NCBI GenBank assembly: GCA_965237955.1
Contig: OZ250169.1
Location: 4,864,001-4,928,000, forward strand
Direction of reading: 5' to 3'
Origin: Candidatus Marinacidobacterales bacterium
GTDB taxonomy: Bacteria; Acidobacteriota; Vicinamibacteria; Marinacidobacterales; SMYC01
Length of the DNA stretch: 64,000 nucleotides
Position 1 is the first letter of the stretch, and every line of letters starts with the position of its first letter. Under the pieces are notes generated by a model. That model was not told the DNA's origin. It did not search any database and saw only the letters and a list, made by a program, of their open reading frames with translations. A program made the position numbers and the translations under genes. Shown one piece after another: positions 35,830-53,990 of the stretch.

Positions 35830-35925
35830 CTCACTTTTCCGGAAGCGATAGCACGTCATCGCCTTCCACCGTTGCCAGGCCGAGTATACTCACACCCGCT
35901 CTCGACAGGAAAGGAGGCCTTTCAG

Positions 35926-37353
35926 ATGCACTGGATGAAGCGCACTCTCGTTCTCTTGCCGTTGCTCGCAACGACGCCGACCGTACTCGCTCAAGACGAC
36001 TACGGAAGCCGCGGCAACCTCTGGGCCGATTGGACTCAAGAGGAGCGCCTGGAAGCGATGGAGCTCGGTGAGCGCTTCAAGGTGATGATCGGCGCTGCCC
36101 GAAGCGAGATGATGATGGTGAAAGAGGCCATCCGCCATGCGGAGGCGCGCGGCTTCGTCGCCTGGGATCCGGCTCGCGGGACGCCGAGCCCGGGGGACAA
36201 GTTTTACGCGGTCAACCGGGATCGAACGATCGTGTTGTGGATCGTCGGCCAAGAGCCGCTCGCGAGCGGGATGCGGCTGGTGAACAGCCACATCGACTCG
36301 GTGCGGCTCGAGACCAAACCCCATCCTCTTCGCGAGCAAAACGGCGCGGTCGTGATGGACACTCTGGTCCATGGAGGCGTCAAGGGCTATCAATGGACCA
36401 ACGTGCCCCTCGCCATCACCGGCCGTGTGGACAAAAAGGACGGGACCACGGTGTGGCTCGAGATCGGGCTCGATGACGACGACCCCATCTTCCTCGTTCC
36501 CGATCTCGCACCCCACGTGGACCGCGACTACCGCGACCGCACCCGGGCGGAAGCCATCGAGCGTGAAGAGCTCGACCCCGTCATCGCCTCCGCACCCCCA
36601 GCGGAGGGCTCCGATCGAGAGACGGTGCTGGACGAGACGCTTCACCTGTTGCAGGAGCAGTATGGTATCGAGCGCGACGACTGGATGAGCGCCGACATCC
36701 AGATTGTGCCGGCGACCGCGCCCCGCGATGTTGGTCTCGACCGGGCGCTCCTGGCCGCGTTCGGCTTGGACGATCGCCTGACGGCGGTAGTGAGTCTGTT
36801 CGCGCTGGACGAGCTCGGGACACCGGCCCATACCGCCATGGCCTACATGGTCGCCGACGAGGAAGTCGGAAGCCGTTGGAACATCGGTGTCTCTTCCGAG
36901 TGGTTTCGCAAGCTCGTGTCCGAAATGATTGTCGCCGAGACGGGTTCGGTCAGCGAGCTCGACGTGATGGAATCGTTTTCCAACACCCATACGGTGACGG
37001 CCGACACCACCACCGCCACCAACCCGCTTTGGCCCGAGCCCCAGGCCAAGGACAACGCGGCCTTGATGCACCACGGCCTCGTCATCAAGCTCTACGGGCC
37101 CGGAAGAAGCGCTAACAGCGAGTTCGTCGCCCACCTTCGGAGGATCCTCGACGACGGTAACGTCGGTTGGCAGACCCACAGCTACAAAGCGGGCTACGGC
37201 GGGGGCACGATCTCGTCCTACTTCGCGGGCTGGAACATGGAAGTCACGGACTGGGGCGTCGGCATCTGGTCCATGCACTCCACCTACGACGTCGCGTCCA
37301 AGGCCGATATCTGGGCCCTATTCAAAGGCTTCGTGGTGTTCTTTCAGAGCTAA
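35926..37353 (+). CDS. Secreted M18 family aminopeptidase, copy 1
   Basis: Signal peptide; SHIDS, GLDDR, DEEVGS, GGGTI and SMHS motifs; RBS AGGAGG. Confidence 0.88.
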   Translation: MHWMKRTLVLLPLLATTPTVLAQDDYGSRGNLWADWTQEERLEAMELGERFKVMIGAARSEMMMVKEAIRHAEARGFVAWDPARGTPSPGDKFYAVNRDRTIVLWIVGQEPLASGMRLVNSHIDSVRLETKPHPLREQNGAVVMDTLVHGGVKGYQWTNVPLAITGRVDKKDGTTVWLEIGLDDDDPIFLVPDLAPHVDRDYRDRTRAEAIEREELDPVIASAPPAEGSDRETVLDETLHLLQEQYGIERDDWMSADIQIVPATAPRDVGLDRALLAAFGLDDRLTAVVSLFALDELGTPAHTAMAYMVADEEVGSRWNIGVSSEWFRKLVSEMIVAETGSVSELDVMESFSNTHTVTADTTTATNPLWPEPQAKDNAALMHHGLVIKLYGPGRSANSEFVAHLRRILDDGNVGWQTHSYKAGYGGGTISSYFAGWNMEVTDWGVGIWSMHSTYDVASKADIWALFKGFVVFFQS

Positions 37354-38450: not shown

Positions 38451-38585
38451 TGTTTAGACTAGACGACTATTCAGTGCGAATCGAACACCGCTTGATACGA
38501 CACGACCTTTCGCGTCATCGCCTTCATCTATTTGCCAGGCCGAGTATACTCACACCCGCTCTCGACAGGAAAGGAGGCCTTTCAG

Positions 38586-40013
38586 ATGCACTGGATGAAG
38601 CGCACTCTCGTTCTCTTGCCGTTGCTCGCAACGACGCCGACCGTACTCGCTCAAGACGACTACGGAAGCCGCGGCAACCTCTGGGCCGATTGGACTCAAG
38701 AGGAGCGCCTGGAAGCGATGGAGCTCGGTGAGCGCTTCAAGGTGATGATCGGCGCTGCCCGAAGCGAGATGATGATGGTGAAAGAGGCCATCCGCCATGC
38801 GGAGGCGCGCGGCTTCGTCGCCTGGGATCCGGCTCGCGGGACGCCGAGCCCGGGGGACAAGTTTTACGCGGTCAACCGGGATCGAACGATCGTGTTGTGG
38901 ATCGTCGGCCAAGAGCCGCTCGCGAGCGGGATGCGGCTGGTGAACAGCCACATCGACTCGGTGCGGCTCGAGACCAAACCCCATCCTCTTCGCGAGCAAA
39001 ACGGCGCGGTCGTGATGGACACTCTGGTCCATGGAGGCGTCAAGGGCTATCAATGGACCAACGTGCCCCTCGCCATCACCGGCCGTGTGGACAAAAAGGA
39101 CGGGACCACGGTGTGGCTCGAGATCGGGCTCGATGACGACGACCCCATCTTCCTCGTTCCCGATCTCGCACCCCACGTGGACCGCGACTACCGCGACCGC
39201 ACCCGGGCGGAAGCCATCGAGCGTGAAGAGCTCGACCCCGTCATCGCCTCCGCACCCCCAGCGGAGGGCTCCGATCGAGAGACGGTGCTGGACGAGGCGC
39301 TTCACTTGTTGCAGGAGCAGTATGGAATCGAGCGCGACGACTGGATAAGCGCCGACATCCAGATTGTGCCGGCGACCGCGCCCCGCGACGTTGGTCTCGA
39401 CCGCGCGCTCCTGGCCGCGTTCGGCTTGGACGATCGCCTCACGGCGGTGGTGAGTCTCTTCGCGCTGGACGAGCTCACCGCGCCGGCCCATACCGCAATG
39501 GCCTACATGGTCGCCGACGAGGAAGTCGGAAGCCGTTGGAACATCGGCGTCTCTTCCGAGTGGTTTCGCAAGCTGGTGTCCGAGATGATTGTCGCCGAGA
39601 AGGGTTCGGTCAGCGAGCTCGACGTGATGGAATCGTTTTCCAACACCCATACGGTGACGGCCGACACCACCACCGCCACCAACCCGCTTTGGCCCGCGCC
39701 CCAGGCCAAGGACAACGCGGCCTTGATGCACCACGGCCTCGTCATCAAGCTCTACGGGCCCGGAAGAAGCGCTAACAGCGAGTTCGTCGCCCACCTTCGG
39801 AGGATCCTCGACGACGGTAACGTCGGTTGGCAGACCCACAGCTACAAAGCGGGCTACGGCGGCGGCACGATCTCGTACTACTTCGCGGGCTGGAATATGG
39901 AAGTCACGGACTGGGGCGTCGGCATCTGGTCCACGCACTCCCCCTACGCCGTCGCGTCCAAGGCCGATATCTGGGCCCTATTCAAAGGCTTCGTGGTGTT
40001 CTTTCAGAGCTAA
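38586..40013 (+). CDS. Secreted M18 family aminopeptidase, copy 2
   Basis: Near-identical paralog of 35926-37353. Confidence 0.88.
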   Translation: MHWMKRTLVLLPLLATTPTVLAQDDYGSRGNLWADWTQEERLEAMELGERFKVMIGAARSEMMMVKEAIRHAEARGFVAWDPARGTPSPGDKFYAVNRDRTIVLWIVGQEPLASGMRLVNSHIDSVRLETKPHPLREQNGAVVMDTLVHGGVKGYQWTNVPLAITGRVDKKDGTTVWLEIGLDDDDPIFLVPDLAPHVDRDYRDRTRAEAIEREELDPVIASAPPAEGSDRETVLDEALHLLQEQYGIERDDWISADIQIVPATAPRDVGLDRALLAAFGLDDRLTAVVSLFALDELTAPAHTAMAYMVADEEVGSRWNIGVSSEWFRKLVSEMIVAEKGSVSELDVMESFSNTHTVTADTTTATNPLWPAPQAKDNAALMHHGLVIKLYGPGRSANSEFVAHLRRILDDGNVGWQTHSYKAGYGGGTISYYFAGWNMEVTDWGVGIWSTHSPYAVASKADIWALFKGFVVFFQS

Positions 40014-40650: not shown

Positions 40651-40759
40651 TAGACGACGTTAACCTTTCCAGCAATTTGACCGATTTGATTGCGATTATA
40701 CCCCCTGTATGATCTATTTTTATTCGGAATGAGAAAAAAATTAGAAGACGTTATTAGGG

Positions 40760-40903
40760 CCGATTAGAACTCTGGAGGCACTCCACCTTGCGTCAGTCGA
40801 TTTCTTGAGGCGTCAGAATCAAGACGTCGAGCTTGCCACGTACGACGAGCGCATGCTGAAGGCTGCTGAGAGAATCGGCGTGACGATCTTCGATCTGTCC
40901 TGA
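40760..40903 (+). pseudogene. C-terminal remnant of a PIN/VapC toxin
   Basis: PIRTLEALHLAS...LATYDERMLKAAERIG. Confidence 0.6.
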
Positions 40904-40988
40904 GCGAAATCTCGTTCGAACGAGCGAAGCCTGCGGCTGGTGCCGCCCCTATCAGGCGAGAAACTACCCGAGCTGATAAAAGGGTTGT

Positions 40989-41153
40989 GAGTGAAGGCTC
41001 CGGCAGCTAAACCCCTTTGAATCACCGGTGCGCTTATGCCCCAGGACGAGCTTGGGTCCGAGCGGGCTCCCTATCATTGGCGAGGCTTTCAACGGAAGCA
41101 CTCCCCAGGGTCAGAATCCAAACAATCGCCATCTCGGGCCGGAGCCTTCACTC
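40989..41153 (+). ncRNA. Putative bridge/seek RNA of IS110 element A
   Basis: 16-bp perfect closing stem (40989-41004 with 41138-41153) and inner hairpins; contains CCCTATCA and GGTCAG, matching the element junctions; paralogous to 47243-47401. Confidence 0.7.
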
Positions 41154-41632
41154 GCCAAAATACATGTGAGGTGAGTGATGCACAAGCGAAGGAACAAGGG
41201 TCGAACCAACTCGGACAACGTTGCGCAGTCGCTGCCCGTGATAAGGCCGAACGTAGCGGGCATCGATATTGGCAGTCGTGAGCATTGGGTGTGTGGCCCC
41301 GCTCTGGCGGACGGCGGGGCAAACGTGCGGGTGTTCTTCACAACAACATCGTCATTGAATGAACTGGCGGATTGGCTCATCGAGCAAGGGGTCGAGTCGG
41401 TGGCGATGGAAAGCACCTACGTCTATTGGATTCCGGTCTATGAGTTGCTTGAATCCCGGGGCCTTGAGGTCATGCTGGTAAACTCGCGCCAGCTCAGCAA
41501 TGTCCCGGGGCGCAAAACCGATATGCAAGACTGTCAGTGGCTGCAGCTGTTACACAGCTGCGGTCTTATTTCGGTTCAGCTGGAACATGACAGTCCTGAA
41601 GTTAAAATACGCACATGGAAAAAGGAGCTGTC

Positions 41633-41929
41633 ATGAGCAAAGGTCGTCGTCGTCACACTGCGGAGCAAAAGGCAGAGCTGTTGCGCCAGCACGTTGCCGA
41701 GAAAAAGCCGGTCTCGGAGGTATGCAACGAGGCAGAAATCCAGCCGAGCCTGTTCTACACATGGCAAAGGGAGCTATTGGCTGGAGCCCATACGGTGTTT
41801 TCGTTCCGTCGTGCGCCGAGCCGTGAGAAGGAGCTAGAGGAGAAGCTCTCCCGTCTCGAGGCGAAGGTGGCCCGTAAGGATCAGATCATCGCTGAGGTGA
41901 CCGAAGAGTACGTGACACTCAAAAAAAAA
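41633..41929 (+). pseudogene. IS3 OrfA (HTH), interrupted at its A9 slippery site; tail at 44959-44973
   Basis: MSKGRRRHTAEQKAELLRQH...TLKKK|LGEA*. Confidence 0.85.
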
Positions 41930-43558
41930 GCCTCTCCTGCCATTTCAGTGGATCCTCTCGAGGGTGAGACCGCCACAGTTTAGGTAGACGAGACTGATGA
42001 GAGCTTCGGCAGAGTGGAGTCCAAAGCTGCGGTGGCTCAGCAGCCGGATTTTGTTGTTCATTCCTTCGAGTCGGCCGTTGCTGAGTCTCCACGTGACCCA
42101 CGCGATGACGCCATCGAAGTGGCTGCGGATCATCTTCGCCGCGCGTTTGACGGGCTCTATCCTCGAGCTCATAGCGCGCCGCAGCCATCCTCGGAGAAAC
42201 TTCTTGGCCCATGTCTCGGTTTTGTAGGTGTAGAGGTCCATGAAGTTGTCGCGCAGAAGCATGGCGCGGTAGAGGCGACGATTAGCTCGCACCTGCTCGC
42301 GGAGCACCCGTTTGTCTTTCGCGCTGCGGTTGTGTTTGGCCTTGAGAAGGGGAAACTTGGTGTTCTTGAGGTTGTGCCGGGCAGTCCCTTTGAGCTCGCG
42401 CACCAGCTCGCGCCGGGTCTTATCCACGGCCTCGTTCAGATGCTTGACGATGTGGAAGCGGTCAAAGATCACCCGTGCCTGAGGAGCCTTTTTGCCGACG
42501 ACAGTTATGTACGGCTCCCACATGTCCATGCTGACCGCTTCGAGCTCCGCGGCTCTTTGTGGTCCGAGCTTGCGGAAAAACCGCAGCAGCGTCTTGGCCT
42601 TGCGCTCCTTTCCCGCCCAGACGACCCGGCCGCTGAGATGGTCTATTACCACTGTTAAGTACTTGTGGCGTTTGCGGTAGCTGATCTCGTCCATCCCAAT
42701 CACCCGCAATCCATCGAGCTCGCGCCGCTCATCCCGCTGCTCGGCAACCACTCGCTGGATGATCCGTCGCACCGAACGCCACGTCACTCGGAAATAGTTC
42801 GCTACGGCGCTGACGTCCGTCCTCTGTGCCAGCCACGCTACCTCTTGTTCGAAGCTTTTGGTAAAGCGGCTTCCCTTGTCTGCCCAAGGCACCTTTTCTC
42901 TGACCACTCCACACCGCCGACATACCACTCGTCGGATCGAGTAGCGAAGATAGGTCCGGACTCCGAACAGGTCCAAGTGCCGCCAGTAGCGATTGTAGCG
43001 ATCTTTGTTCTTGCGGACCTTTCGTCCGCAAATCCCGCACAGAGGCTTCCTCCTCCGTGGTACTACATCCACCACCACTCTGGCTTTGTCCGCCTGGAAG
43101 TGGAAACCTCGGACCCACAGGCCTTGCAATCCGATGAGCTTGTTGACTAACGTAGTAACGCGCATCGCGGGAACGCTCTTTTCTCTTTCGGAAAAAAAGA
43201 TTCTAGCGTTCTCGCCGATGCGCATCTACACATGGCTTACCCTCTCAACCCACGGGCCTCACCAAATGCCACTGCCCCTCAGCGGGAGACAAGGCTGTGG
43301 GAAACGCCCCCACGGTTCTGGTCGTTCAGACCTTGCTCACGACTGAGTTCTCTTCGAAGCCTGGAAGGGCGTTTTCCATAGCCTCCACTAATCGAGCCCC
43401 CCCTTCCTTATTCCATATGAATTAATCTTTCTTGTATATATATCAGGAGGGGCCTGTGGGCGCTCGTGGGAAACGCGAAGCGTTTTCCACAATCGCGGCA
43501 GCGTCCATAGGCCATGCCCTCCAACACAAATCAGATCCCCCGAAACGACAGGAGAACC
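41930..43558 (-). mobile_element. ISL3 family element 1
   Basis: IRs GCCTCTCCTGCCATTTCAGTGGATC and GGTTCTCCTGTCGTTTCGGGGGATC; 8-bp TSD AAAAAAAA. Confidence 0.88.
41945..43165 (-). CDS. ISL3 family transposase
   Basis: Zn finger CxxC...CxxC; GMDE, SMDMW, FDRFH and LEGMNNKI motifs. Confidence 0.92.
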   Translation of the reverse strand: MRVTTLVNKLIGLQGLWVRGFHFQADKARVVVDVVPRRRKPLCGICGRKVRKNKDRYNRYWRHLDLFGVRTYLRYSIRRVVCRRCGVVREKVPWADKGSRFTKSFEQEVAWLAQRTDVSAVANYFRVTWRSVRRIIQRVVAEQRDERRELDGLRVIGMDEISYRKRHKYLTVVIDHLSGRVVWAGKERKAKTLLRFFRKLGPQRAAELEAVSMDMWEPYITVVGKKAPQARVIFDRFHIVKHLNEAVDKTRRELVRELKGTARHNLKNTKFPLLKAKHNRSAKDKRVLREQVRANRRLYRAMLLRDNFMDLYTYKTETWAKKFLRGWLRRAMSSRIEPVKRAAKMIRSHFDGVIAWVTWRLSNGRLEGMNNKIRLLSHRSFGLHSAEALISLVYLNCGGLTLERIH

Positions 43559-43568
43559 AAAAAAAACT

Positions 43569-44952
43569 GGGTCTACGCGGAAATCTGTGGGCGAATGCTG
43601 ACGGAGAAATAGTGTAACTCATTGTGTGGAAAAGGTATTCAGCACTTCATCAGGTGCTGAGAAGTGATCCGTTTTTAGGATAGGCTAACCGAGTGAAAAA
43701 TCCCCAGTCGATCCGCTCGCTTTTTGCGCTACCAGGTTTCGTGGCTGGCGCCCGATTGAACGGTGTATTCGGTGACCGATACGCCCGCGTCATCCAGCTC
43801 AAGAGGCGAAAAAAACAGCCGTGTGCTCGTACTGTGGGCATCGGTGCCGGGGGCGCTATGACAAGCAAGTGTGCCGGGTCCGCGACCTGTCGTTGGCAGG
43901 CTGGCGGATCTATCTGGAATACGAGCGTTGGCGCGTCAACTGTCGTGGGTGCGGTGGTGTGCATGTAGAACACTTGGACTGGCTGGCGAACAACCCGCGC
44001 TACACCCAGCGCTTTGCGACGCATGTGGGCAAGCTGTGCCGGGATATGCCGAACAAGGCGGTGGCCGAGATGGAACGTCTGCACCACACTACGGTGAAGG
44101 ACCTGGATAAGCTCTACATGCAAGAGCAAGTCGAGCGGGCGGGGCTGCCGGCGCCTCGGGCCATCGGTATCGATGAGATCTCCATCCGCAAGGGACATAA
44201 CTATCGTGTCATTGTCAGCGACCTGGAGCGGGCGCGTCCCATCTGGGTGGGCGGTGAGGGTCGCAAAGAAACCGACATCGATTTGTTCTTCAAGGCGCTG
44301 GGCGGGAAGAAAAGCGCCCGTATCAAGCTGGCCGCCATGGATATGTGGAAGCCCTTCCGGAACTCGGTGATTAACAACGCACCCAATGCGCGGATCATCT
44401 TCGACAAGTTTCATATCATGCGTCACCTGTCAAAGGCTCTCGATGAGGTCCGGCGCCGTGAGTACAAACGCCTCAGCGGCGAGGACCGGTCGTATATCAA
44501 GGGGCAGCGTTACACGTTGCTTTCCCGGCGGGAGAACCTGAGCCTGGACGGTCGCCGCGCACTCAAGAAGTTGCTCCAGGCCAACCGGCGCCTGAACACC
44601 GCCTATGTTTTGAAGGAGGCCTTCGGGCAACTCTGGGATTACCGCACCGAACGCGGGGCTCGCGCCTTTTTCACACGTTGGAAAGACAGCCTCAAATGGC
44701 AGCGCCTGCATCCCTACCAGAAGTTCGCCGGAATGATTGAGTCCCATTGGGATGGTATCGCCTCCTACTGTCATCCTGAGAACAAAGTCAGTCTCGGACT
44801 GGTTGAAGGGGTCAACAACAAAATCCGTGTTCTGCAACGACGCGCCTACGGCTATCGTGACGAGGGATATCTCAAGCTGAAGATCGTGGCGGCATTCCTT
44901 CCGCCATTACCCAGAAATGCCGTTTTCAACCCACACGAACCCGCGTAGACCC
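43569..44952 (+). mobile_element. ISL3 family element 2
   Basis: IRs GGGTCTACGCGG and CCGCGTAGACCC; 8-bp TSD AAAAAACT. Confidence 0.9.
43693..44948 (+). CDS. ISL3 family transposase, probably expressed by -1 frameshift at A7 (~43809)
   Basis: Short ORF ...QLKRRKK joins TAVCSYCG...GIDE...MDMW...FDKFH...EGVNNKI. Confidence 0.85.
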
Positions 44953-45020
44953 AAAAAACTTGGGGAAGCCTGAGTGGTGCCTGGATTCCCCATGACCGTC
45001 GTGACGAGGTTGTCGACTTC

Positions 45021-45935
45021 GTGAACACAATCGCCACCAAGACCCAGCTTCCGGTCCAGCAGATCGTTCAGTGGTGCGGGATCGCTCGGGGCAAGTTCTA
45101 CGACTGGCGCAAGCGGTACGGGAAGGTGAATGAGCACAACGGCCTGGTGCCGCGGGATCACTGGATCGAAGAATGGGAGCGCCAGTCCGTGATCGACTAC
45201 TTCGACTGCCACCCACTGGACGGGTATCGCCGACTCACGTTCATGATGCTGGACGAAGACGTGGTGGCAGTTAGCCCCTCGACGACGTACCGGGTGTTGT
45301 CGAAGGCGGGTCGTCTGGACCGTTGGAACCCGAAGCCGTCGAAGAAGGGAACGGGCTTCGTTCAGCCGCTGCGAGCGCACCAGCACTGGCACACGGATAT
45401 CTCGTACTTGAACCTGGGTGGGACGTTCTACTACCTCTGCTCGTTTCTGGATGGTGCGAGCCGCGCGGTGGTTCACTGGGAGATTCGTGAGTCGATGACG
45501 GAAGCGGATGTGGAGTGCATCTTGGAGCGAGCAAAGGAGCGGTACCCCGATGCGCGGCCTCGAATCATCTCGGACAACGGTCCGCAGTACATCGCGAAGG
45601 ACTTCAAGGCATTCATCCGCATCTCAGGGATGACGCACGTGAGGACCGCGCCGTACTACCCGCAATCGAACGGGAAGATCGAGCGTTGGCACAAGACGAT
45701 AAAATCGGACGCCCTGCGTCCTGCCAGCCCCACGAGCCTCGAAGAGGCTCGCCGCTTGATGGAACGATTCGTCGAATATTACAACGGGGTTCGCCTGCAC
45801 AGCGCGATCGGCTACATTGCGCCGCTGGACTTCATGGATGGCAAGGCCACCCAGATCTGGTCGGAGCGAGACCGCAAACTCGAGCAGGCTCGGAAGCTGC
45901 GGCGTGAGCGCCGTGCGAACAAGGTGCCCGCATGA
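45021..45935 (+). CDS. IS3 OrfB DDE transposase domain
   Basis: GYRR, WHTDISY, SDNGPQY, QSNGKIER and HSAIGY motifs. Confidence 0.9.
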   Translation: MNTIATKTQLPVQQIVQWCGIARGKFYDWRKRYGKVNEHNGLVPRDHWIEEWERQSVIDYFDCHPLDGYRRLTFMMLDEDVVAVSPSTTYRVLSKAGRLDRWNPKPSKKGTGFVQPLRAHQHWHTDISYLNLGGTFYYLCSFLDGASRAVVHWEIRESMTEADVECILERAKERYPDARPRIISDNGPQYIAKDFKAFIRISGMTHVRTAPYYPQSNGKIERWHKTIKSDALRPASPTSLEEARRLMERFVEYYNGVRLHSAIGYIAPLDFMDGKATQIWSERDRKLEQARKLRRERRANKVPA

Positions 45936-45965
45936 ACACTCTGATCCCAGGAGCCCCACTCCGTT

Positions 45966-46096
45966 CCCTCTCGCCCACAAGCATTGAGTACCAGAGAGCG
46001 CAGGGGGCGTCAAGGGCGGCGAAGCCGGCGCGCGCAGCGCGCTTTACCCTTGACGCCCCCGAGCACTCTGGTACTCAATGCTTGTGGGCGAGAGGG
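45966..46096. repeat. Long palindrome in the IS3 3' non-coding end
   Basis: 31-bp perfect outer arms plus 14-bp perfect inner arms (46003-46016 and 46047-46060). Confidence 0.85.
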
Positions 46097-47242
46097 GACA
46101 TCCTGCCGCCGGGCGTTGCGTTAACGTCCAACCTCGCTGTCATCTTCACGCTGAACCAATACAGTCTGTTGCGGGGCTCATTTCGTCCAAACGAATCGAT
46201 CTGCCGACTACGCGCGCTGCACCGACAGCGCGGCAACCTCGTCGAGCAGGGTATTCGAGCCATTCATTGGATACAAAAGTCTCTCGACCAAATGAACGTG
46301 CAGGTTCATCATGCGGTGACCGATATTACCGGCAAGACCGGGATGCGCATCGTGCGCGCCATCGTCGATGGCGAGCGCGACCCGTTGAAGCTTGCTGCGT
46401 TGCGTGACCGACGCTGCAAGAAGAGTGAAGAGCAAATCGCGGAGCATCTGACCGGCAATTGGCGTGACGAGCATCTTTTCAACCTCGCATCCGCTCTGCG
46501 TTTCTACGATTTGCTGCAAGCTGAAATCCGACTCTTCGACCAGCGCATCCTTGAAGTGCTCACGGAACTTCAGCCGCCAGAACGTAGACTCGAAACCGTG
46601 CCAGCCCATCCCAAGCCACAAAAACGATACGACATGCGCAATCGAGGCGAAGACGAAATCCGCAACGAGCTGTGGCGTTTTGCTGGCCGTGACCTCACTC
46701 TGATTGATGGCATCAGTCCCACCACCGCCGCCATCATCCTCACCGAGATCGGATGCGACCTCTCCTATTTTCCCAGCGAAAAACACTTCGTCTCATGGCT
46801 ACGCCTCGTTCCACGTCGCCCTATCTCCGGCGGTAAGCAACTCAAAAAACGTCCCAATGGCACCGGCTCCAATCGTATCGCCGGGGCCCTGCGTATGGCC
46901 GCTGTAGCTCTCTCGCGATCCAAGACGGCCCTCGGGGCTTACTATCGCCGTGTCGCTCGTCGTAACGATGGGAATACCGCCGTCTTTGCTACCGCGCGCA
47001 AACTTGCCCAGCTCGTCTTCCGCTTGCTCAAGTTCGGACAAAACTACATCGACATCGGCGAGCAGGCCTTCGAAGAGCGCTTTCGCCAAAAACACTTCAA
47101 CGGCATAAGAAGAGCAGCCGAAGCGCTCGGTTTCACTCTCACTCCCAACGCCGTCGTAAATTAGTTTCCGGTCAGCTACGCCCCCGGCCGGAGGCCGGGC
47201 CTATCAAGTAGGAAACTACCAAAGCTGGTAGAAAGGTTGTCG

Positions 47243-47401
47243 GTGAAGGCTCCGGCAGCGAGCCCCGTACTGTCATTGGTGCATGATGCCCCAGGGTCAG
47301 CTTGGGTCCGAGCCGGCTCCCTATCATTGGCGAGGCTTCCAACGAAAGCACTCCCCACGGTCAGAATCCATTCGATCGCCATCTCGGGCCGGAGCCTTCG
47401 C
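47243..47401 (+). ncRNA. Putative bridge/seek RNA of IS110 element B
   Basis: Stem GTGAAGGCTCCGGC/GCCGGAGCCTTCGC; CCCTATCA (47319-47326) and CGGTCAGA (47358-47365) flank an inner hairpin. Confidence 0.7.
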
Positions 47402-47427
47402 TCACAAAATACACTTGAGGTGAGCGA

Positions 47428-48812
47428 ATGAACAAACGAAGGAAGAGCAAAGCGGCGAAGCGTCTCTCACGGAATTCCCTGCCGTCGATACGACCGATGG
47501 TAGCGGGCATCGATCTCGGGAGTCGAGAGCATTGGGTCTGCGGTCCGCAGCTAGCTGATGGTCGGCCGAACGTGCGGGTGTTTTCCACGACAACGCCGGC
47601 GCTGGTTGAGCTTGCGGATTGGCTTATCGAGCAAGGTGTGGAGTCGGTGGCGATGGAAAGCACCCACGTCTATTGGATTCCGGTTTATGAGTTGCTCGAA
47701 TCCCGTGGTATCGAGGTCGTTCTTGTCAACGCTCGGCAGCTGAAGAACGTTCCGGGTCGCAAAACCGATATGCAAGATTGTCAATGGCTGCAGACGTTAC
47801 ACAGCTGCGGACTTCTGCGTGGCTCGTTTCGCCCGGGGGAGTCGATTTGCCGATTACGCTCGATGCACCGGCAGCGTCAAGAACTAATCGAGCATCGGGG
47901 CCAAGCCGTCCAATGGATGCAGAAGGCTCTGGACCAGATGAACGTGCAAGTCCACCGTGCGGTGACCGACATTACCGGTAAGACCGGAATGCTCATCGTT
48001 CGTGCCATCGTTTCTGGCGAACGTGACCCGATGAAGCTCGCCGAGTTTCGAGATCATCGATGCAAGAAAAGCGTAGACGAAATCGCAGAGCATCTCACCG
48101 GCACTTGGCGTGACGAGCATCTTTTCAATCTCGCATCGGCGCTGCGCCTTTACGATGTGCTACAAGCCGAAATCGAACTCTACGACCAGCGTCTATCCGT
48201 GAAGTGGTCATCGAGCTTCAGCCGACCGAGCGCAGACACGACAGTGTGCCCGCTCATCCGAACCCGAACAAGCAAAGCGCCATGCGGCGCCGCGGCGAGC
48301 AGGAACAGCGAACCGAACTGTGGCGTTTTGCTGGATGCGATCTCACCCGCATCGACGGCATCAGCCCCGATACCGCCGCGATCCTACTCACCGAGGTCGG
48401 GTTCGACCTCTCTGCCTTCCCCAGTGAAAATCACTTTGTCTCGTGGCTCCGTCTTGCGCCGCGCCGCCCCATCTCGGGTGGAAAGCTACTCTACAAACGC
48501 CCCAATGGCACCGGCTCCAACCGTATCGCCGGTGCCTTACGCATGGCTGCATTGTCACTCAACCGTTCGAAGACCGCACTTGGTGCTTACTATCGCCGCA
48601 TCGCCCGACGTAAAGACGCTAAAACCGCGATCTTTGCCACCGCAAGAAAGCTCGCTCAGCTCGTCTTCCGCATGCTCAAATATGGTCACGAATACACAGA
48701 CATCGGTGCATCTGCCTTCGAGGAGCGCTTTCGCCGAAACCACATCAACGGCTTGCGAAAGGCAGCCGAAAAGCTCGGCTTTACACTCACTCCCGAGGCT
48801 GCTGCAAAGTAG
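47428..48812 (+). pseudogene. IS110 family recombinase B, frameshifted near 48192
   Basis: Full DEDD N-domain in ORF 47428; C-domain with ISGGK in ORF 48204-48812; two extra nt relative to paralog A. Confidence 0.88.
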
Positions 48813-48873
48813 TTTCCGGTCAGATTTCTTGATGTTGCGTAATCGCGGGAGATGAGGAGAGGTTCAGAGAGTC

Positions 48874-49324
48874 TCACGAACAGCAGCTGGGCTCGCAACA
48901 GGGTTCTTCGGTCTTCGCCGCTTGCACGGCCGGATCGCTTTCGTCGGTGACGTCGCCTTCCTTCACGACGAACACTTCCCAGCGGTAGCCGTTGGGATCG
49001 CTGACCCACACCTTGTCTTGGAGCGCGTAGCAACAGACAGTGTCGTTTTCTTCGAGGGTCTCGAAGCCGGCTTCGGAGAGACGCTTGGTTGCTTTGGCGA
49101 CCTCTTCCGCCGAGCTCACCTGAATACCTAGATGGTTGAGCGCACCCGGGTCGCGCGGCGCTTCCTTGCTTTTGTTGAGGGTGAAGTTGAGCCCGGGCTC
49201 TCGGAGCTCGAACTTCGCGTAGCCGGGTTTCAGCTTCACCGGCTCGCTGCCGAAAAAGCCCCGGTAGAAAGCGACTGGACTCGTCGAACTTGTTGGTGTT
49301 GAGAGCAACGTGAATCTTGTTCAT
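48874..49324 (-). pseudogene. ArsI/CadI family VOC metalloenzyme (C-As lyase-like), frameshifted near 49278
   Basis: MNKIHVALN...; YAKF...LNHLGIQV...CCYALQDKVWVSDPNG.WE; C-terminal CC pairs. Confidence 0.85.
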
Positions 49325-49401
49325 CTTTGCCTCCTATGGTTCTAGAAAAATCGAACTGTTTGGCGAAACCTGTGTCCCTGCGGTGGAAGACCTCATCGGA
49401 G

Positions 49402-49728
49402 TTATGCCTTTGCGGGGACGGAGATGTTGACGACGGGCTGGCGAGTGCAGCACTCGGCGTAGAGAAAGTTCAAGAGGACTTGGAGTTGCGCGGTGCCGGC
49501 GCGATAGCGGAGAAATCGGCCTTCGCGTTCCTGCTCGACGAGGTCTTCGTGGCGAAGTGCGTCGAGGTGGTGCGAGAGGGTGGACGCCGGGATAGCGAGC
49601 TCATCCTGCAGCTCGCCGACGACGAGCCCTCCGGGGTGCGCTGCGAGCAGGAGACGGATGATGGCGACCCGGTTTTCGTGCCCGAGGGCCGCGAACATGC
49701 GTGCTACCTCCGCTGACAGCTCATCCAT
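49402..49728 (-). CDS. arsR: ArsR/SmtB family regulator
   Basis: FAALGHENRVAIIRLL...STLSHHL...REGR...ECC. Confidence 0.88.
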   Translation of the reverse strand: MDELSAEVARMFAALGHENRVAIIRLLLAAHPGGLVVGELQDELAIPASTLSHHLDALRHEDLVEQEREGRFLRYRAGTAQLQVLLNFLYAECCTRQPVVNISVPAKA

Positions 49729-53198: not shown

Positions 53199-53251
53199 GC
53201 TCACCAGGACTCCCCCCCGAGGACTCTCACGCGAGTAGAGCCTCCTCGTTT

Positions 53252-53854
53252 TGTATTGGTTCAGCGTGAAGATGACAGCGAGGTTGGACGTTAACGCAAC
53301 GCCCGGCGGCAGGATGTCCCCTATCGCCCCAGGGATCGTACCAGAGTGCTCGGGGGCGTCAAGGGTAAAGCGCGCTGCGCGCGCCGGCTTCGCCGCCCTT
53401 GACGCCCCCTGCGCTCTCTGGTACTCAATGCTTGTGGGCGAGAGGGAACGGAGTGGGGCTCCTGGGATCAGAGTGTTCATGCGGGCACCTTGTTCGCACG
53501 GCGCTCACGCCGCAGCTTCCGAGCCTGCTCGAGTTTGCGGTCTCGCTCCGACCAGATCTGGGTGGCCTTGCCATCCATGAAGTCCAGCGGCGCAATGTAG
53601 CCGATCGCGCTGTGCAGGCGAACCCCGTTGTAATATTCGACGAATCGTTCCATCAAGCGGCGAGCCTCTTCGAGGCTCGTGGGGCTGGCAGGACGCAGAG
53701 CGTCCGATTTTATCGTCTTGTGCCAACGCTCGATCTTCCCGTTCGATTGCGGGTAGTACGGCGCGGTCCTCACGTGCGTCATCCCTGAGATGCGGATGAA
53801 TGCCTTGAAGTCCTTCGCGATGTACTGCGGACCGTTGTCCGAGATGATTCGAGG
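53252..53854 (-). mobile_element. Truncated second copy of the IS3 (right end plus OrfB C-terminus)
   Basis: Near-identical to 45558-46163; right IR TGTATTGGTTCAGC at 53252. Confidence 0.9.
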
Positions 53855-53990
53855 TTTCACCCACTACCACGTCGTATTCCGAAACGCCTGGTGCGCCAGG
53901 AGGCCCCTCAGGGCCCGGCGGTCCGGTACAGCCTCCTGCGGATAGCGCCGCCACCACCAGGATCGCCAATCCAAGTCTCTGATTTCTCAT
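53855..53990 (-). pseudogene. Collagen-like lipoprotein, 3'-truncated by fusion to the IS3 fragment
   Basis: MRNQRLGLAILVVAALSAGGC-TGPPGPEGPPGAPG; RBS AGGAG. Confidence 0.65.

Follow-up and report, generated by a model that had tools for sequence, protein, structure and literature searches.

IS110-family elements of a Candidatus Marinacidobacterales genome whose predicted bridge RNA appears to read both donor sites on one DNA strand

Introduction

The IS110-family elements IS621 and ISCro4 (PMC11208160, PMC11208158; PDB 8WT6, 9T56), as far as the available parts of these sources describe them, encode recombinases of RuvC + Tnp architecture, are accompanied by an upstream RNA with separate target and donor loops, recombine at a CT/AG core and carry a handshake dinucleotide after the 3' target guide. 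Here, we analyse two elements (A and B) that share these traits (the handshake apparently so, in the target loop) and lie end to end in a 64,000-nucleotide stretch (the window; contig OZ250169.1, positions 4,864,001 to 4,928,000 of the forward strand, assembly GCA_965237955.1) from a Candidatus Marinacidobacterales bacterium. Unlike IS621, the clade to which they belong has longer proteins (~460 vs 326 amino acids (aa), ~20% identity), longer inverted repeats (mostly 6-9 bp vs 2-3 bp), sites inverted relative to the gene (the sense guides being the 3' guides) and a donor 5' guide that appears to read an internal site on the same strand.

The IS1111 group (ISEc11, ISPa11; available text of PMC11187229) has in common with A and B the sub-terminal inverted repeats and the order of the target-loop guides, with the complement of the top strand coming first. 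It differs in having its RNA downstream of the gene (upstream in A and B), in its 330-350 aa proteins (much shorter than those of the present clade) and in its 11-13-bp sub-terminal repeats situated 7 bp and 3 bp from the ends, an arrangement that the clade lacks, since its repeats are shorter and the left one stands 30-42 nt from the core.

The accessible part of the work on ISPpu9 and MITEPpu9 of Pseudomonas putida KT2440 (PMC12288879) describes, as in A and B, an AG core and a palindrome near the left end, together with transposase-dependent circles and a miniature derivative such as the present clade also has. By eye, the printed A and B boxes of ISPpu9 (supplement Table S2, PMC12288879) fit the end layout given below, and the N.PGRK.D and GLL..SF.P motifs of the present clade recur in the protein that is the representative of the ISPpu9 cluster in ISfinder (PMC11208160 supplement, as available); compared through this representative and these boxes, ISPpu9 apparently belongs to the same clade. 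Unlike the present account, that part of PMC12288879 maps no guides and proposes no fold-back. The literature searched (to which figures, bioRxiv supplements and subscription papers did not belong) held no description of a same-strand internal donor guide.

Results

Two donor guides on one strand

The elements, their predicted RNAs, the donor-loop guides and the internal sites are located as follows.

40925 to 47175, + strand: element A (IS110 family), interrupted by nested insertion sequences (ISs); sequence comparison
47176 to 48823, + strand: element B, seven genomic copies, 1646-1648 bp if uninterrupted; copy comparison
40991 to 41159, + strand: predicted bridge RNA of A; covariance model, 149.5 bits, A in the seed
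47243 to 47409, + strand: predicted bridge RNA of B; covariance model, 143 bits, B in the seed
41069 to 41076, + strand: A donor-loop 5' guide CCCTAT-CA; loop-DNA match
41108 to 41114, + strand: A donor-loop 3' guide GGGTC-AG; loop-DNA match
47319 to 47326, + strand: B donor-loop 5' guide CCCTAT-CA; loop-DNA match
47358 to 47364, + strand: B donor-loop 3' guide CGGTC-AG; loop-DNA match
40947 to 40954, + strand: internal left-end site CCCTAT-CA of A; matches the donor-loop 5' guide
47200 to 47206, + strand: internal left-end site CCTAT-CA of B, earlier supposed to be a junction; copy comparison

An initial annotation, made from the window's sequence, had noticed that the words CCCTATCA (41069-76 and 47319-26) and (C/G)GGTCAGA (41108-15 and 47358-65) flank the same inner hairpin in both RNAs and are sense copies of words in the DNA, all of which we confirm. 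It had further placed target and donor guides in one shared loop; the two sense words do share one loop (the donor loop), while the target loop is a separate one, formed by the variable first stem-loop.

The counts that follow derive from 131 covariance-model matches, of which 127 were parsed, 113 had the 3' end of the gene in the locus and 89 were distinct (<90% RNA identity); 76 of the distinct ones have an inverted-repeat pair and 66 a left junction. Five odd left ends (L010, L052, L120, L182, L047) were ranked last as representatives, and three of them (L120, L182, L047) stayed in the counts. Because junctions were placed via the matches of the donor and target 3' guides + AG, the per-position scores of these matches are circular and were left unused.

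The donor 3' guide followed by AG was found after the stop codon in 76/89 elements (permuted 4.2, maximum 10), in line with the donor role already proposed for GGTCAG; A's present right end (CGGTC-AG) agrees with A's donor 3' guide at 4/5 positions. The donor 5' guide matches a sense-strand site inside the left end at at least 5/6 positions in 59/76 elements (permuted 7.3, maximum 17), with the site located through the inverted repeat alone and ±1 nt allowed in observed and permuted data alike. At the canonical IS621 position, i.e. on the adjacent opposite strand, its agreement is at chance (1.20 vs 1.22 permuted, of 6), and the donor loop does not show the IS621-type pairing, in which its guides bind opposite strands to the left and right of the core. 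Its agreement with the left flank is likewise at chance (1.35 vs 1.48 permuted, of 6; n = 66), which speaks against the former view of CCTAT as a target-left guide. Within the first 45 nt of the left end, the 5-mer of this guide occurs in sense in 36/66 elements and in antisense in 2/66. Across 38 non-overlapping sister pairs with 70 guide differences, the DNA follows the guide in 46, is unchanged in 8 and behaves otherwise in 16. The RNA-DNA covariation that the initial annotation had proposed as a check links GGTC-AG with the right end and CCCTAT-CA with the internal site, and fails for CCCTAT with the left flank.

The reassignment of the guides (target loop, donor loop and internal site) is well supported, and the real oddity, as judged from sequence, is that the two donor guides read the same strand, the 5' guide doing so within the left end; the architecture does differ from that of IS621, as had been suspected, in that the donor 5' guide falls on an internal same-strand site.

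Element boundaries and the AG core

40923 to 40924, + strand: core AG at A's left junction, preceded by target-left GAACG; empty-site palindrome
47162 to 47175, + strand: right end of A (inverted repeat, 5 nt, AG), which is B's target-left site; sequence
48809 to 48823, + strand: right end of B (9-bp inverted repeat, GGTC, core AG); copies and run ends

The left junction had been drawn at cctaTCA, with TCA or CA as the core. All seven genomic copies of B, however, have in common the 24 nt 5' of cctaTCA and diverge only before GGTC-AG, and therefore the supposed left junction is an internal site that lies 24 bases inside the element. Since the seven copies start after GGTC-AG and all end at the AG of 48822-48823, the core of B is AG. 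The right junction was correctly placed except for its end, which falls after the G at 48823, where loose ends occur in sequencing runs X1, X3, X5 and X13. Removal of B at the AG core near G000:C1:6427916 (in the same genome) restores a reading frame with 35-40% identity to three paralogues across the junction, whereas the cctaTCA boundary breaks the frame at this very site. The reading-frame evidence was taken from this one empty site, compared with paralogues; the same test on all seven empty B sites was uninformative, as high GC gives long open frames.

The left flank of A joined to the flank after 48823 forms a perfect 24-nt palindrome (the original empty site), by which A starts at 40925, not at 40953 as first annotated, and B is inserted exactly at A's right end. 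The GAACG-AG before A matches the 3' guide of A's target loop at 4/5 positions plus AG. A short core shared by both junctions, as in IS110 bridge recombinases, was found throughout: AG bounds A, each of the seven B copies and 11 copies of a third element (see below) on both sides. The 24-nt hairpin segment of the left end was also considered as a target resembling repetitive extragenic palindromes and was ruled out for want of free copies, as all 7/7 of its genome matches (up to 4 mismatches allowed) lie within the element.

Target loop and target sites

41016 to 41024, + strand: A target-loop 5' guide + CA, weakly antisense to the right flank; loop-DNA match
41044 to 41052, + strand: A target-loop 3' guide GGACG-AG + handshake CT; loop-DNA match
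47267 to 47275, + strand: B target-loop 5' guide + CA; loop-DNA match
47294 to 47302, + strand: B target-loop 3' guide GGGTC-AG + handshake CT (B's first two bases); loop-DNA match

The variable first stem-loop is the target loop, in which the 3' guide is sense and the 5' guide is antisense and weak. The 3' guide with AG is matched at at least 4/5 positions upstream of the internal site in 66/76 elements (permuted 5.9, maximum 15). Antisense agreement of the 5' guide with the right flank is weak (2.54 of 7 vs 1.72 permuted; n = 59), with matches of 0.53, 0.51 and 0.39 at positions +1 to +3 (about 0.25 expected). By sequence matches, the target loop pairs with both target strands as in IS621, its 5' guide being weak. 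A handshake guide after the 3' target guide is expected from IS621 (available text of PMC11208158), and the two bases in this place agree with the element's first bases (1.30 vs 0.74 of 2), the first of them equalling the element's first base at 0.82 vs 0.48; a donor-loop handshake with the right flank is at chance level (0.59 vs 0.56).

The target and donor 3' guides of B are one base apart, and the sites that it targets look like its own right end; this accounts for the A-B and B-B tandems. In the clade as a whole, targets show some likeness to the repeat of the element itself (2.25/5 vs 1.77 permuted and 1.26 background; n = 64). Palindromic targets (1/66), heptamer-repeat targets (4/66) and tandem left ends (1/54) are not general among the representatives. 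Empty near-palindromic sites like A's target were seen in the window at ~23463 (G000:C1:4887463) and at G000:C1:5224164 and 5497842, and the relatives L011, L013, L014 and L016 are located in mirror palindromes of their own target guide. Six others (L108, L113, L114, L121, L124, L139) are inserted in 7-8-nt tandem repeats whose unit approximates target guide + AG, and three (L244, L247, L248), whose core is AA and whose target guide is poly-A, at the A-run of apparent IS3-family frameshift sites. The right-end 5-mer of A (47169-47173) is B's and not A's own guide, and the right end of L016 has a target-type 5-mer; it is possible that these swaps (two cases only) reflect heteroduplex conversion after a one-strand insertion.

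Layout of the ends

40933 to 40946, + strand: left-end DNA hairpin of A, 5-bp stem, 8 nt past the core
47183 to 47199, + strand: left-end DNA hairpin of B, 7-bp stem
40960 to 40966, + strand: left copy of A's short inverted repeat, pairing with 47162-47168
47211 to 47219, + strand: left copy of B's 9-bp inverted repeat

The right end consists of inverted repeat, 5 nt and AG, and the left end of AG, ~8 nt, hairpin, 6-nt guide site, dinucleotide, 4-5 nt and inverted repeat. The internal site thus has the hairpin on one side and, on the other, the left copy of the right-end inverted repeat; it lies 24-36 nt from the AG core and is followed by CA in 33, CG in 16 and other dinucleotides in 27 elements (n = 76). 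The repeat measures 6-9 bp in 70/76, and the element's own right-end repeat is present in the left end in 65/70 (vs 29 permuted; 10 repeat variants). A left-end hairpin of at least 4 bp was found in 62/66, its 3' arm ending 5-6 nt before the dinucleotide in 41/66, and covariation was seen in the basal pairs of the hairpin (43/66 vs 30, 45/66 vs 26 and 40/66 vs 25; 0/2000 shuffles each). The bases after the core are not complementary to the internal site (5-33% at six positions). In folds of the joined ends the repeats are paired in 63/66, partly by construction, as elements were chosen for having the pair.

A 60-bp miniature with eight identical copies in locus L036 retains exactly these end parts. 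Miniatures and tandem arrays of element ends serve as landing sites (L036:4444-4820; upstream of L030, L033 and L034; downstream of L245), and in L245 and L128 a second RNA-bearing left end lies directly 3' of the right end.

Structure of the predicted bridge RNA

The structured region before each gene had been described from sequence as closed by a long stem (16 bp perfect in A) with a near-invariant 3' part, and so it proved: A's closing stem is a perfect 16 bp (40989-41004/41138-41153), and A and B share 90% identity over 124 nt of the 3' part. The closing stem of B was mapped as follows.

47237 to 47256 with 47388 to 47407, + strand: closing stem of B's predicted RNA

An alignment of 45 upstream regions, picked for diversity, gives a closing stem and two separate stem-loops, each with an internal loop in which 5' guide-CA precedes 3' guide-AG. 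Of 33 pairs, 26 changed on both sides, and 94.4% of cells are paired; slid controls, favoured because the structure was derived from the same alignment, are paired at 34-56%. By sequence and covariation, this is a structured RNA with separate target- and donor-binding loops, as in the IS110 family. The covariance model built on it has matches in 148 sources (131) and in this genome (18). Single-sequence folds were partly wrong for B (z -1.7, -2.4), and the alignment-based structure was taken instead; a box C/D link to Nop5 was set aside as general to IS110 and not specific to the clade. Rfam at its gathering threshold gave 0 matches in the window. In contigs of four RNA runs from one study no piece covered the bridge RNA and no joints were seen, which does not show absence, the sole piece of an RNA region in them being a 39-nt stretch of a different element; four other runs held no circle junction, which equally does not show absence.

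Recombinases, clade and genomic surroundings

41178 to 41566, + strand: N-terminal RuvC (DEDD) part of the A recombinase; PF01548
46164 to 47164, + strand: C-terminal part of the A recombinase; PF02371
47428 to 48812, + strand: B recombinase, with a frameshift near 48195 in the present copy; domain match and copy alignment
41567 to 46163, strand not assigned: nested IS3-like element with two ISL3 elements, splitting A's gene; boundaries by eye

The two recombinases are related members of the IS110 family, each with Pfam PF01548 and PF02371, and the annotation of two such RNA-guided elements was sound. For B, 2/7 copies (on G000:C1, near 4255265 and near 5054049) give a single unbroken alignment. 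An intact relative (P0001, 462 aa) scores 248 bits against NCBIfam NF033542 (cut-off 140), and the best structural match of its fold is IS621 (E 6e-11). The catalytic D, E, D, D and the S of the SG motif are invariant in 14/14 aligned proteins, and the DEDD RuvC domain is combined with a Tnp domain bearing the catalytic serine, as in IS110 bridge recombinases. The clade is large (7998/7999 scored candidates belong to it), and related loci occur in metagenome-assembled genomes of Acidobacteriota and other phyla and also on plasmids.

Inside A, a 4-bp GTCT duplication stands on both sides of the 4.6-kb IS nest; its IS3-like element (41567-46163) is split by two back-to-back ISL3 elements, one of them at the IS3-like A-run, and another IS3-like end lies at about 53250-53860 of the window. 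The genome also holds the third element, more distant within the clade (48% identity to P0001) and with the same end layout on G000:C1, of which 11 left ends were found (e.g., G000:C1 541038, 2886914, 7941457) and several targets start with AGTTTC, a motif like the repeat. A different IS110 element (~23% identity to P0001) is present as four copies in tandem at G000:C1:5882716-5888984. Upstream of A are two near-identical 493-aa genes, aminopeptidase-like by eye (35872-37353 and 38532-40013, 2660 bp apart), and a PIN-domain-like 3' gene remnant (by eye; 40750-40903) directly before A's palindromic target. An ArsR-family regulator and a glyoxalase-family gene adjoin B's right end (48874-49728, - strand) and are possibly an arsenic-response pair.

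Discussion

A proposed folded single-stranded donor

We reason that the donor is probably recognised as a fold-back single strand and not as a double helix, which is the likeliest mechanism that the sequence of the ends suggests. The strand antisense to the recombinase gene would have two DNA arms, one made by pairing of its inverted repeats and the other by the hairpin. Both donor guides would pair with this antisense strand, and folding would set their two sites opposite each other between the two duplex arms; the facing guide sites would form a pre-opened bubble that mimics the melted donor duplex of IS621. The target, for its part, would be read by the target loop in the ordinary two-strand mode, through a strong guide (5 nt + AG) and a weak one (1-3 nt). 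By analogy with IS621 the cut is expected 3' of CT on the antisense strand, the two bases after the target guide acting as the handshake, and a single-stranded circle would enter or leave by one strand exchange, with replication completing the process. Were a second exchange to take place at the internal site, the ends left behind would be capped by hairpins; it is therefore predicted not to occur. The CA found in place of CU at the 5' guide ends was considered as a block to the second exchange and dropped, as the left donor guide of IS621 also pairs over only 8 nt.

In integron attC and CTX phage attP sites, a folded single strand is the recombination site, one strand is exchanged and replication resolves the product; the enzymes are tyrosine recombinases without a guide RNA, and the likeness is a functional analogy only. 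A fold-back of the antisense strand fits published findings on the exchange of one strand and on circles of single-stranded DNA: the available texts report single-stranded circles for IS621 (10.64898/2026.08.31.748434) and integration of the top strand only for CazIS110 (10.1101/2025.10.25.684509).

Several observations weigh against this mechanism. The stability of the hairpin is modest (mean z -1.4; 26/66 below -2), the guide sites are mostly open in just 15/66 of the joined ends when these are folded without constraints, and keeping the sites open costs ~3.5 kcal/mol in A and B. The internal site is matched at no more than 3/6 positions in 5/76 elements, and the permutation controls ignore kinship. 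The 23 clade copies in the genome have no replication-strand bias (13 co-directional, 10 head-on); a weak GC skew served to place the origin and the terminus. Lastly, in the accessible part of PMC12288879, ISPpu9 with a mutated left-end palindrome still formed correct minicircles by end-point polymerase chain reaction, though deletion of its left box did abolish circles.

Alternative explanations

These ISPpu9 circles, which survive palindrome mutation and also loss of the 5' flank (PMC12288879, as available), would suit a recognition of paired ends as double-stranded DNA, in which the donor loop binds two duplexes (the internal left site and the right end), protein binds the inverted repeats and the hairpin does no more than help bring the left core to the active site. 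Such an arrangement, which we consider rather unlikely while granting it real weight, is comparable to the loops of the X-shaped IS621 excision complex; one loop on two duplexes, with excision by the donor loop only, has been described for IS621 (available text of PMC13626964), and the lean of targets towards the element's own repeat (2.25/5 vs 1.77 permuted) fits a read-out of the repeat by protein. It leaves unexplained, however, the covarying hairpin at its fixed spacing, and a cut at the AG core, 24-36 nt from the site read by the guide, would need looping or folding of the strand anyway.

It is improbable that the internal site is regulatory, i.e. that the 3' guides alone recombine (by half-match) and a ribonucleoprotein at the site tunes the element's own promoter, which would probably lie between the internal site and the RNA. 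Half-match recombination is reported in the literature as far as available, the site is ~40 nt upstream of the RNA's closing stem, and ISPpu9 uses a native left-end promoter (accessible part of PMC12288879). Against it stand the promoter scans, which called no sigma-70-like promoter in the left end of A or B, the miniatures, which keep the internal site while lacking gene and RNA, and the symmetric 4-5-nt spacing to the repeats, which it does not explain. The scheme first drawn from the sequence (core TCA, CCTAT as target-left guide, target and donor guides in one loop), whose words do match DNA near the left end, is hardly tenable, being refuted by the copy boundaries (the 24 nt before cctaTCA common to seven copies), by an empty-site reading frame compatible with the AG core only, by the chance-level agreement of the guide with the left flank and by a separate loop that covaries with the target.

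Implications

Returning to the fold-back donor, we tentatively suggest, as something that could well be so without our quite expecting it, that this large and widespread IS110 clade is an RNA-guided counterpart of integrons, with a folded single-stranded donor and one programmable strand transfer, and that some members may read hairpin targets. Bridge recombinases are under development as genome-writing tools, and their single- or double-strand movement is debated in papers of 2025-26; as the ends of this clade would encode a single-strand fold, the question is directly testable via compensatory guide-site swaps. Covariation scans confined to 25 nt around the core (10.64898/2026.10.21.760802, as available) would partly miss the internal site and, if the proposed mechanism is true, donor designs taken from IS621, with their short duplex around the core, lack a site that these enzymes cannot do without. 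In that case, cargo could be brought to an RNA-chosen site by a hairpin-capped single strand whose ends take up ~60 bases, and programmable insertion from single-stranded donors could become possible.

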